Shown: one piece after another, positions 1 through 12,000 of the stretch | Position numbering within the stretch: position 1 is the first letter of the stretch | Layout: each line of letters starts with the position of its first letter | Origin: Escherichia coli | Lineage (GTDB): Bacteria; Pseudomonadota; Gammaproteobacteria; Enterobacterales; Enterobacteriaceae | DNA: 64,000 nt | Reading direction: 5' to 3' (one strand) | Assembly (NCBI RefSeq): GCF_013315695.1 | Contig: NZ_CP054353.1 | Made by a program: the position numbers

Positions 1-3000
1 TTCGCTCTCATCAGAACGTCCGATGATTGGCTTTTGCCCCGGAGCGGAGTTTGGTCCGGCAAAACGCTGGCCACACTACCACTATGCGGAGCTGGCAAAG
101 CAGCTGATTGATGAAGGTTATCAGGTGGTTCTGTTTGGCTCGGCGAAAGATCATGAAGCGGGCAATGAGATTCTTGCCGCTTTGAATACCGAGCAGCAGG
201 CATGGTGTCGGAATCTGGCGGGAGAAACACAGCTCGATCAAGCGGTTATCCTGATTGCAGCCTGTAAGGCCATTGTCACTAACGATTCTGGTCTGATGCA
301 CGTTGCGGCGGCGCTCAATCGTCCGCTGGTTGCGCTGTATGGACCAAGCAGCCCGGACTTTACGCCGCCGCTATCCCATAAAGCGCGAGTCATTCGTCTG
401 ATTACCGGCTACCACAAAGTGCGTAAAGGCGATGCCGCAGAAGGATATCACCAGAGTCTGATCGACATTACTCCCCAGCGCGTACTGGAAGAACTCAACG
501 CGCTATTGTTACAAGAGGAAGCCTGACGGATGCGGGTTCTGATCGTTAAAACATCGTCGATGGGCGATGTTCTCCACACGCTGCCCGCACTCACTGATGC
601 CCAGCAGGCAATCCCAGGGATTAAGTTTGACTGGGTGGTGGAAGAAGGGTTCGCACAGATTCCTTCCTGGCACGCCGCCGTTGAGCGAGTTATTCCTGTG
701 GCAATACGTCGCTGGCGTAAAGCCTGGTTCTCGGCCCCCATAAAAGCTGAACGCAAAGCGTTTCGTGAAGCGCTACAAGTAGAGAACTATGACGCAGTTA
801 TCGATGCTCAGGGGCTGGTAAAAAGCGCGGCGCTGGTGACGCGTCTGGCGCATGGCGTAAAGCATGGAATGGACTGGCAAACCGCTCGCGAACCACTGGC
901 AAGCTTGTTTTACAATCGTAAGCATCATATTGCAAAACAGCAGCACGCCGTAGAACGCACCCGCGAACTGTTTGCCAAAAGTCTGGGCTATAGCAAACCA
1001 CAAACCCAGGGCGATTATGCTATCGCACAGCATTTCCTGACGAACCTGCCTACAGATGCTGGCGAATATGCCGTATTTCTTCATGCAACAACCCGAGATG
1101 ATAAACACTGGCCGGAAGAACACTGGCGAGAATTGATTGGTTTACTGGCTGATTCAGGAATACGGATTAAACTTCCGTGGGGCGCGCCGCATGAGGAAGA
1201 ACGAGCGAAACGACTGGCGGAAGGATTTGCTTATGTTGAAGTATTGCCGAAGATGAGTCTGGAAGGCGTTGCCCGCGTACTGGCTGGGGCTAAATTTGTA
1301 GTGTCGGTGGATACGGGGTTAAGCCATTTAACGGCGGCACTGGATAGACCCAATATCACGGTTTATGGACCTACCGATCCGGGATTAATTGGCGGGTATG
1401 GGAAGAATCAGATGGTTTGTAGGGCTCCGGGGAATGAGTTGTCTCAATTGACAGCAAATGCTGTTAAGCAATTCATTGAAGAAAACGCTGAAAAAGCTGC
1501 CATGATTTAAATTACAACTCTTTAATAGATAATTTTGAAATAAAATCAGCTTCCTTGCTGATTTTATTTCACATATTCATTACTTATCTAATAAACATTG
1601 GTCCGATTGTGCTTTAAAATAAGCACAAAGCAATATTATGGTGACAAACACAGCAGTCGGAACCGGTTTAGAAAAGAGTATTACATCACTTAGGCCTACT
1701 ACCAGTAGTGAAAAAAGCAAGATTAAAATATAAGGTTCTTTAGCAGTTCTTAAGGCATATATGAATATTGCTGAAAAGGCTAAAATTGTTAATACTACTC
1801 CAGGAATACCACGCGTTGATAACGTATCTATGAGATCGTTATGCAAATGAGAATCTACAAAGGGTAAAGCGCCACTTAATCTAGGCTCTTTCTCTTCTAG
1901 TTCATGTATTTTTTCCGCGCGTTTTTCCAGTGATTGTCCTATTGGAGAATATGTTTTTAAACCAACTTCATACATTGCCAGACGGGCACCGACTGAAGTT
2001 CTGGTGTTATCATGCGAATAATTAACTAAATCCCTATTTAAGTCATTCATTCTCGTAAGTAATGTATCTTTAAAAGAAAATACACCTGCTAATAATGCAA
2101 TCGCAATAAAACAATATAACTTATAATTAATTCGCTTATTAATATAACTATCCATTACGATTAATAGTAACGCAAAGAATGGAAACACTAATATGGCTGC
2201 ACGCGTTTCAGTTACTATAACAGCACATAAGCTAAGCATGAAGTTAATTGTATATAATGTTGTTTTATGTCTAAAGTCGGATTTTAAAATGAGAATTGAT
2301 GCCAGTAAAGAAGGGAAAAGGATGATGTAGCCTGCTGTTGTAGCGTGGGAAGCTGATAATGCAACACGGTCGACGTTTAAATAGAAATGTTGCCACATGG
2401 CATGCGAAAAAAAAAGTAACTGCGTTGCCAGGGATGCGAACAGAATTAGTTTCCCAAATTTTATTTGGGTTCTCATCTCATCTTTAGCAAAAAGAACTAA
2501 GAAAATAAAAGCACTACACAAGGCAATTTTTCCAGTTTCCATTGGGCCACGATATGCATTGGTATAAACCGAGCCTGAAACTTTATAATGTGAATACCAG
2601 ATGATATTAACGATACCCAAAAGACATAATGAGATAAAAATTAACAAAGTAGGATTATTAGTTATTGTTTTTTTTGGTGTCGCTAGAAAATATAATGCAG
2701 ATATAATTCCAGCTGCATGAAGAAACTTTGTTGCAACATCATCCCACAAAGACAAAGTCATTAAAGACAACATACATAATATGAGAATTAAAGACTTGAC
2801 ACCAGAGTTAATTTCTTTCCAACAAAACGACATATAATTTCAACCTATGCTAAGAGGATGGGTTATTTAATGCAAGACCTAACGTTTATTCTTTTTTCTA
2901 TTTACCAGTCTTACCATCCTCCAGAGAATATAGTTTTTTGATGCTAATATTTTTGCTCGCCTCTTATCTCTCTTGCCAAGAAGATTACAATCTTTCAATT

Positions 3001-9000: not shown

Positions 9001-12000
9001 AAGCAAGTGCTTCAATGGAACGATCGACACCTTTACGCGTGAAGTCTGAACCGACCTGCAACAATAAATATTGTTGTTCGGTTATTCCATTCTTCTTACG
9101 GAAGATTTCACGGCTATTCGCTGGTTGCTGGCTATATTTACGATCAGGATAAATCCCCGGTGGCAGAATATGAAAACGCTCCGCTTCAGTCTGATAATGT
9201 TTCTGGAAATCGGCGATTTGCTTATCTGTCAGCATCAGCAGCTGTGTCGGCTTGCCCTGTTCGAAGGTTGCCCGCTCAAAGGCGGCATAATGGCGATAAC
9301 GTGACGTCAGGCGATAGAAAAAGCCTTTCTCCTGCGCTACTTTCTCGGCATAACAAACATCAGCGGCATAATAAACGTCCAGCCCCGGCATTTTATTAAA
9401 TCCAACGACTCTATCGACGGGGTGTTCACGTAAATGTTTTTGCACCCAGGCAAAATATTCCGCATTGCGCCCGTGATTGGTATGCGATTTAACCGGCACT
9501 TTGATCAGTTCAAATACATCAGGGCATTCGCCTTCCCACGACTGGGTATAAACCCGAACATGATGACCTCGGGCGGCAACTGTCTGAGCAATACGCATAA
9601 AATCGCGCTGCAAACCGCCAAAGGGAAAATATTTATATAAACAAAAAGCAACGATCATAACGACGTACCTGTCGTGGAGGAGGGAAGTAATTTATCGACA
9701 GCTGCAATGACATCTGCCGCCGGAATAACCGAAAGATACATCTCATTTCGGTCACGCTGATCGCGCGTTGGCATTTCCCGGTAATCTCCCGCCCAGAATT
9801 GAATCATGTTATTTGACCAGGGACGCCAGAAAATATGGTCTGTCGCACCAAACAGCGATATCAGCGGCGTATTAACTGCAGCGGCAATATGCGCCGGTGC
9901 GGAATCAACGCCAATAAACAGCTGCGCATGATCGATTAACGCACCAAGTTCCGGGAAGGTCACCTTTCCGGCCAGCGCCGTTACTGGTGGCGTCTGGCAT
10001 CCCTGCGCAATTTCATTGACGCAGGCCAGATCGTCTTTATCTGGGCCGGACGTCAGAACGACTTCATAACCACGAGCATGTAAGGCATCAATCACAGCGG
10101 AAAACTTGGCGTTGTCCCAGCATTTGAAGATTTGCCGCGCCGTAGGTTGGATAACCACATAATTTTGTCCAACACCAGCGTGATCAAGTTCGCGACGCAT
10201 ACGTTTCCAGCTTGCAGGCGGGTAACTCATGGTTGTCTGCTTCACCAACGATTCAAGTCCCAATGGCGTCAGCACGGATAAGTTACTTTCCACCACATTT
10301 CCACCCTGCAACGGCACCAAATGAGTGAAACTATTACGCCAAAAAGCAGACTGCCGATGATGATAATCCTGGGAAATTTTCACACGGGCATTTAATAAGC
10401 GAACCAGTATAGCAACCATCCATTGATCGGTAAGATTAACGATAAGGTCATACTTATTGGCACGTAATACCTTGATGAGATGAAAAAAGTTGGCAATTTT
10501 TTCTGAAGCTTTTGCTTTTTTATTTTTTATGCCGTAGAGCGCGTTAATCTCTGGATTTTCAGACAGGATCGGGATGGTGTCCTGATAAAGCAGCACATCG
10601 ATTTTTGCGTCAGGGTAATTTTTTTTCAGCGAACTAATGACGGGAGTAGTTAATAACATATCCCCATGAAAACGCATCTTAATGAGCAAAATTCTTCGAA
10701 ATGGCTTATCCACAAGTAACTCTTTTTGTTGAGATTATCCGATTAAGGTGAAGCAGAAAAAGCACGCTACCGCCCCAGGCTCAACAGCTACCTGAATACT
10801 GATACCGCACTGATATTGACGCGCTAGTGTATCACTTCTTTCGCGGCAATCCGACCCGAATGATTTTTAAGCACATTGTTGATTTTCAATAAAGAAATCA
10901 ATCAAATAAAATCATTAGCAACCATATTCTTTTACTGTTGCTCTGCGATTCCTTCCTGCACGTACTGCAGAAATCAATGAATCGCATAAAAATACAAAAA
11001 AAGTATAGATGTTCAGCAAGAATTGGCGGGTAAATTGCTATTTAAGTCAAAAACGGGAAAAGTAATGGTAAAGCCACAGCTAAATACATAGAATCCCCAG
11101 CACATCCATAAGTCAGCTATTTACTATGCTCGAATTGCTTTACACCGCCCTTCTCTACCTTATTCAGCCGCTGATCTGGATACGGCTCTGGGTGCGCGGA
11201 CGTAAGGCTCCGGCCTATCGAAAACGCTGGGGTGAACGTTACGGTTTTTACCGCTATCCGCTAAAACCAGGCGGCATTATGCTGCACTCCGTCTCCGTCG
11301 GTGAAACTCTGGCGGCGATCCCGTTGGTGCGCGCACTGCGTCATCGTTATCCTGATTTACCGATTACCGTAACAACCATGACTCCAACCGGTTCGGAGCG
11401 CGTACAATCGGCTTTCGGGAAGGATGTTCAGCACGTTTATCTGCCGTATGACCTGCCCGATGCACTCAACCGTTTCCTGAATAAAGTCGACCCTAAACTG
11501 GTGTTGATTATGGAAACCGAACTATGGCCTAACCTGATTGCGGCGCTACATAAACGTAAAATTCCGCTGGTGATCGCTAACGCGCGACTCTCTGCCCGCT
11601 CGGCCGCAGGTTATGCCAAACTGGGTAAATTCGTCCGCCGCTTGCTGCGTCGTATTACGCTGATTGCCGCCCAAAATGAAGAAGATGGTGCACGTTTTGT
11701 GGCGCTGGGCGCAAAAAATAATCAGGTGACCGTTACCGGTAGCCTGAAATTCGATATTTCTGTAACGCCGCAGTTGGCTGCTAAAGCCGTGACGCTGCGC
11801 CGCCAGTGGGCACCACACCGCCCGGTATGGATTGCCACCAGCACTCATGAAGGCGAAGAGAGTGTGGTGATCGCCGCACATCAGGCATTGTTACAGCAAT
11901 TCCCGAATTTATTGCTCATCCTGGTACCCCGTCATCCAGAACGCTTCCCGGATGCGATTAACCTTGTCCGCCAGGCTGGACTAAGCTATATCACACGATC

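Follow-up and report, generated by a model that had tools for sequence, protein, structure and literature searches.

Which of the five lipopolysaccharide (LPS) core types of Escherichia coli is specified by the waa (rfa) cluster in a 64,000-nucleotide stretch of contig NZ_CP054353.1 (RefSeq assembly GCF_013315695.1), hereafter the window? The types differ in the genes for the outer core and in the placement of the O-antigen ligase gene waaL. We concluded that the locus is almost certainly an intact R1-type cluster with the gene order waaQGPOTYWVL. This conclusion follows from an R1-specific typing product, from a family 2 glycosyltransferase (GT2) gene that has no homologue in the loci of the other core types, and from the position of waaL as the last gene of the waaQ operon. 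The locus is a textbook one, already known as the commonest core-type form, and its occurrence here adds nothing new to biology.

Gene content and typing of the locus

Gene families were assigned by Pfam and NCBIfam profile matches, and gene names were cross-read from the RefSeq annotation of E. coli MSB1_4I (NZ_LR898874.1), a complete genome in which the locus is 100% identical and whose gene set agrees with ours. Positions 1580–10713 of the window consist of exactly nine open reading frames (ORFs), end to end on the minus strand, and none contains an internal stop (Table 1). The genes are spaced 9–81 bases apart, with two overlaps (waaP/waaG, 8 bases; waaG/waaQ, 4 bases). Read from waaQ, the families run waaQ-waaG-waaP-GT8-GT8-kinase-GT8-GT2-ligase, where GT8 denotes glycosyltransferase family 8. 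The initial annotation had placed, between waaQGP and the ligase and all on one strand, a GT2 gene, a kinase and three paralogues of family GT8, and each was located there by its profile match and by RefSeq. It had further proposed the order waaQGPOTYWVL, with waaL closing the waaQ operon, and the succession of families bore this out together with the names that sources give to O, T, W and V. The exact GT2 sequence is named by one source ‘UDP-glucose:(glucosyl)LPS beta-1,3-glucosyltransferase’, which is the WaaV activity, and the source names of the exact GT8 sequences agree with the WaaW, WaaT and WaaO activities. All that had been described lies at the coordinates given; one correction concerns the start of waaP, which is most likely the ATG at 8541 (265 amino acids, aa) and not the GTG that opens the longest ORF at 8550.

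The outer-core genes were also correctly described as AT-rich. G+C content was 32–38% in waaL, waaV, waaW, waaY, waaT and waaO, compared with 47–48% in waaP, waaG and waaQ, 51% in waaC and 54% in waaA (window, 47.8%). Outside the nine genes, waaF and waaC on the plus strand converge on waaL, and waaA diverges from waaQ.

We typed the locus in silico by matching nine oligonucleotides (Trofimova et al. 2025, PMC13293308, Table 2) to the window with up to 3 mismatches. The sites for R1-F and R1R4-R bound an amplicon equal to the published R1 size (842 bp), whereas R2-F/R, R3-F/R, R4-F and K12-F/R had no site in the window even with 3 mismatches. The typing polymerase chain reaction suggested in the initial annotation thus gave, in silico, the R1 product and no other. 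One locus of each other type served as a control, and each gave a product of the published size: K-12 MG1655, 1442 bp; the GT25-bearing (glycosyltransferase family 25) R4 locus of NZ_CP115376.1, 380 bp; O157:H7 Sakai (R3), 1021 bp; and the waaK/waaZ locus of FDAARGOS_1337 (R2), 610 bp. Two older primers also have sites ~552 bp apart (R1C3, an exact match at 2431; R1K15, one mismatch, at 2982); this pair was treated as a lead only and was not used for typing.

The R4 type has the same gene order, also with waaL on the waaQ strand, but it differs in its waaL and in carrying waaX, which encodes a GT25 beta-galactosyltransferase. Much of the locus would fit such an assignment: the architecture is shared, and WaaQ, WaaG, WaaP, WaaO, WaaT, WaaY and WaaW are 93.6–99.7% identical to their R4 counterparts. 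The gene between waaW and waaL, however, encodes a GT2 protein, where the R4 locus has a GT25 protein of 257 aa; the comparison of these two, which had been proposed as a check, revealed no similarity (best E = 5). The ligase is just 35% identical to that of R4, and the R4-F site is absent. On these three grounds we regard the R4 assignment as refuted, its probability being negligible.

The proteins were compared with those of all four control loci. WaaV had no homologue in the K-12, R2, R3 or R4 locus (E <= 1e-3), and no WaaW was present in the K-12, R2 or R3 comparison loci. WaaW was 93.6% identical to the R4 protein and 33–38% identical to other GT8 enzymes of K-12, R2 and R3. The corresponding values were 99.7% and 43–45% (to WaaJ/R) for WaaT, 99.1% and 52–54% for WaaY, and 97.3% and 50–55% for WaaO. 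WaaP, WaaG and WaaQ were 99.5–99.7% identical to R4, 98–99% to R3 and 73–90% to K-12 and R2; for WaaG alone, identity was 99% to R3 and R4 and 88–90% to R2 and K-12. WaaL was 30% identical to K-12 WaaL and had no match to R2 or R3 WaaL, in a comparison with one locus of each. The initial annotation had named best matches to K-12, R2 or R3 outer-core genes as evidence against R1; the GT2 protein had no match to them, and the other outer-core proteins reached 31–55%. The ligase allele is thus specific to the core type, and it is linked to waaV in 1,832 genomes.

The features that place a locus in another type were absent from the window. These are, for R4, the R4-F site and a GT25 gene (waaX) that lies upstream of waaL; for K-12, waaS, waaB, waaJ, waaZ and waaU; for R2, the N-acetylglucosamine transferase gene waaK, and waaZ; and for R3, waaD and waaJ(R), with waaL after waaC in the latter three types. 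We therefore rejected assignment to K-12, R2 or R3 on gene content, on the strand of waaL and on the absence of primer sites.

Table 1. Features of the waa region, by position in the window.
Feature	Position	Strand	Basis
waaF (rfaF, heptosyltransferase II), 3' part, cut by window start	1..526	+	RefSeq annotation of NZ_LR898874.1
waaC (rfaC, heptosyltransferase I), 326 aa	530..1510	+	RefSeq; 95–97% to WaaC of K-12/R2/R3/R4 over 312–316 aa
Block setting R1 apart from R4: 3' end of waaC, waaL, waaV, last ~27 codons of waaW	1430..4024		blastn against R4 locus of NZ_CP115376.1
Perfect hairpin, 15-bp stem, AT-rich	1536..1571		Folding energy −20.8 kcal/mol (z = −6.8 relative to shuffled sequence)
waaL, R1-type O-antigen ligase, 417 aa	1580..2833	-	Pfam Wzy_C 2e-17
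waaV, predicted GT2 beta-1,3-glucosyltransferase, 327 aa, R1-defining	2879..3862	-	Pfam Glycos_transf_2 (PF00535) 3.8e-39
In-silico R1 typing amplicon, waaV to waaW, 842 bp	3262..4103		R1-F site at 3262 (+), R1R4-R site at 4103 (-)
waaW, predicted GT8 alpha-1,2-galactosyltransferase, 342 aa	3944..4972	-	Pfam GT8 and GT8C; RefSeq name
waaY, predicted heptose II kinase, 230 aa	4998..5690	-	NCBIfam RfaY 401.8 bits (cut-off 248); Pfam WaaY 2e-129
waaT, predicted GT8 alpha-1,2-galactosyltransferase, 331 aa	5700..6695	-	Pfam GT8 and GT8C; source name
waaO, predicted GT8 alpha-1,3-glucosyltransferase, 338 aa	6712..7728	-	Pfam GT8 and GT8C; NCBIfam PRK15171 609 bits (cut-off 461)
waaP, predicted heptose I kinase, 265 aa	7744..8541	-	NCBIfam RfaP 479 bits; annotated start
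waaG, predicted GT4 glucosyltransferase I, 374 aa	8534..9658	-	Pfam GT4; RefSeq
waaQ, predicted heptosyltransferase III, 352 aa, first operon gene	9655..10713	-	NCBIfam RfaQ 713 bits
JUMPstart element, ops octamer GGCGGTAG at 10767–10774	10763..10801	-	Rfam RF01707, 55.2 bits (gathering score 35)
waaA (3-deoxy-D-manno-octulosonic acid, Kdo, transferase)	11126..12403	+	RefSeq; 99.8% identical to K-12 and R3 WaaA

Predicted operon and core assembly

A JUMPstart element with its ops octamer lies ~50 bases upstream of waaQ. RfaH is recruited by ops and counters both termination and polarity in long operons for LPS synthesis; such an action suits a run of nine tightly spaced genes that is AT-rich over its distal two-thirds. 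We propose that the nine genes are read as one operon from a promoter region upstream of JUMPstart/ops, and that RfaH-dependent antitermination would carry transcription through all of them, including the AT-rich distal genes. No promoter is claimed, since a simple scan found 34 sites against 31.4 expected from shuffled sequence. Two further GGCGGTAG octamers in the window (21666, 37464) were within chance expectation and were dropped. At the other end of the operon, a hairpin occupies the 69-bp gap that separates the convergent genes waaC and waaL; it is probably a bidirectional terminator.

Catalytic motifs were present throughout the locus. All four GT-A enzymes (WaaV, WaaW, WaaT and WaaO) contain a DXD motif, in WaaV as DDDD at residue 93; both kinases (WaaP and WaaY) contain HRD and IDL motifs; and the ligase contains ETR, GAR and HxHxD motifs. 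WaaL matches the solved WaaL structure 7TPG (6.6e-13); for WaaO there is a match to LgtC, an enzyme of family GT8.

From the roles that the literature assigns to these enzymes, we infer the following course of assembly. WaaG would add the first glucose (Glc I) to the second heptose (Hep II), while in the heptose region WaaP would phosphorylate Hep I, WaaQ would add Hep III and WaaY would phosphorylate Hep II. Glc II would be added in alpha-1,3 linkage by WaaO, and galactose (Gal) residues Gal I and Gal II, both in alpha-1,2 linkage, by WaaT and WaaW, respectively, so that WaaG, WaaO, WaaT and WaaW together would build a Glc-Glc-Gal-Gal backbone. The GT2 enzyme WaaV is predicted to attach a Glc side branch to Glc II in beta-1,3 linkage, and the R1-specific WaaL to join O antigen at this beta-Glc branch in the periplasm. 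WaaV has been described as the determinant of R1 (PMC3526765), and in an E. coli strain with waaV, waaW and waaT, O antigen is lost when waaV is mutated.

A cell may carry R1 genes and nevertheless make a truncated or altered core, through missense changes or through regulation. Such loci do become disrupted: in two K-12-type genomes, an IS5-family and an IS1-family transposase (IS, insertion sequence) lie within the waaL-waaY gene group, and strain ST540 gave a partial waaL match. In the window, by contrast, all nine ORFs are full length, the catalytic motifs are intact and the locus contains no IS element; moreover, WaaT, WaaY, WaaP, WaaG and WaaQ are at least 99% identical to their R4 homologues. 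We thus consider an altered core improbable and retain the reading of an intact R1 cluster.

Prevalence and the rest of the window

The waaL-waaV-waaW block was used as a query at >= 80% coverage against 5,426 complete E. coli genomes and was found in 1,832 of them (33.8%). Nucleotide identity of the block in these genomes was ~97–100% (BL21, 97.2%), and beyond the few identical genomes the closest were ~99% identical. A further ~694 genomes (12.8%) matched part of the query; those sampled mostly matched waaW alone, which is the R4 pattern. The K-12-specific block was present in 1,032 genomes, with an R2-like partial pattern in ~500 more. These counts match the published proportions of core types: a 2025 survey of 4,505 typed genomes reported 35.4% R1, 12.3% R4, 18.4% K-12 and 8.2% R2, and an independent survey that typed by waaL allele reported 38.9% R1 (PMC8715443). 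Of the five core types of E. coli, R1 occurs most often.

With 64 kb of the genome visible, a second outer-core block could lie elsewhere, and the strain would then be a hybrid, of R1 with R4 or of another kind; precedents are ECOR46 and the hybrids of R2 with K-12. The near-identical complete genome MSB1_4I, however, has a single place that matches the waaL-waaV-waaW query, the locus is uninterrupted within the window and free of IS elements, and in the 2025 survey ~0.9% of genomes were untyped, the hybrids found being a subset of these. We consider a hybrid highly improbable, and the assignment to R1 is preferred over it.

Three points nonetheless weigh against the R1 assignment. The R1 identity is drawn from the typing primers, the gene content, the names given by sources and identity at the population level, and not from the prototype F470 itself. 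Point mutations that alter enzyme activity may be present, the evidence consisting of sequence. Lastly, this precise form of WaaV is a minor allele, seen in 91 contigs of a cluster with 4,729 member sequences. The genetics of the R1 type, with F470 as prototype strain, were reportedly set out by Heinrichs et al. in 1998 (J Biol Chem 273:29497).

The R1 call is a useful annotation of the strain. It predicts the outer-core epitopes available to core-directed antibodies, the LPS-dependent phages that would adsorb, and the position at which O antigen is attached. Phages that depend on WaaV, WaaW, WaaT and WaaY have been documented.

Apart from an insertion in the regulatory gene eilA, 7 single-nucleotide polymorphisms separate the window from MSB1_4I (99.99% identity). 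The gene dinD (~20350–21170) is annotated as frameshifted in MSB1_4I, and the same frameshift is expected here because the window aligns to that genome without gaps over dinD. An accessory cluster of the phosphotransferase system (PTS) fructose family lies on the minus strand between yicI and yicH (~34660–41480, with coordinates mapped from the MSB1_4I annotation); its genes encode a BglG-type antiterminator, IIA, IIB and IIC components, two aldolases, a ROK protein and a lyxose/mannose isomerase.

The tRNA-Sec gene selC (45774–45864, plus strand) is followed by a rhuM remnant. Within 46000–64000, after setC, yicL, nlpA and yicS, we observed an island that encodes a SycD-like chaperone, a YopB/SseC-like translocon subunit and an IpaD/SipD-like tip protein, together with eilA (a HilA-family regulator) and iatC. 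A complete IS1 of 768 bp (57019–57786), with terminal inverted repeats and an 8–9-bp target duplication (CAAAAGTT), interrupts eilA. It is absent from the otherwise 99.99% identical MSB1_4I, indicating that the insertion is recent, and it probably inactivates eilA, the regulator of the adjoining type III secretion translocator and adhesin genes. The large inverse-autotransporter adhesin gene iatC runs on the minus strand from 58160 to the window end. It contains tandem repeats of ~290 bases (60314–61781) that are 82–85% identical to one another and presumably encode repeated Ig-like domains. A premature stop suspected in iatC at the window end was checked and not found; the frame is open to that point.

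Comparison with known core types

Compared with the K-12, R2 and R3 loci, the window has the same flanking genes (waaF, waaC, waaA and coaD) and the same inner-core genes waaQ, waaG and waaP. In those three types waaL follows waaC on the strand of waaC; it is the last gene of the waaQ operon only in R1 and R4. The initial annotation had contrasted the locus with K-12 in this respect, and rightly so: in K-12, as in R2 and R3, waaC is followed by waaL on the plus strand. The outer-core genes also differ. K-12 (MG1655) has waaS, waaB, waaO, waaJ, waaY, waaZ and waaU; in R2 (FDAARGOS_1337) the position of waaS is taken by a GT8 gene (wabA-like, a label of our own), followed by waaB, waaO, waaJ, waaY, waaZ and waaK; and R3 (O157:H7 Sakai) has waaI(O), waaY, waaJ(R) and waaD. 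None of the three has a GT2 gene. Relative to R3, the region unique to the window spans 1411–7743 and coincides with the low-G+C stretch.

The R4 locus of NZ_CP115376.1 has the same architecture as the window, including a waaL that ends the waaQ operon. A blastn alignment of the two revealed homology over 1–1429 (96.3%) and over 4025–11972 (98.9%, from inside waaW through waaQ into waaA), and nothing between. In the interval, R4 carries the GT25 gene waaX and a distinct ligase gene, whereas the window carries waaV and its own waaL. This exchange block is 2.6 kb long, and both of its junctions fall within coding sequence (1430–1510 in waaC and 3944–4024 in waaW). WaaW is identical to R4 WaaW over residues 1–310 and diverged over its last 32 residues. 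WaaC diverges beyond about residue 300, with a tail that differs between core types and a length of 326 aa compared with 319 aa in K-12 and R4. The block thus ends not in intergenic DNA but within the 3' ends of its two flanking genes, near codon 300 of waaC and codon 311 of waaW, so that WaaC and WaaW each have a C-terminal tail that is core-type specific and always travels with the waaL-waaV or waaL-waaX pair. It is conceivable, though we think it very unlikely, that these tails are functionally matched to the block, as opposed to being mere scars of recombination. They would then, for example, contact the ligase or the side-branch transferase at the membrane or within a complex.

Lastly, comparison with the R1 type revealed no difference, and the alleles of the window are those of one of the R1 sublineages. 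The window shares with R1 the order waaQGPOTYWVL, a waaL that closes the waaQ operon, waaV as a gene of family GT2, the R1 amplicon and the low G+C content of the outer-core genes.

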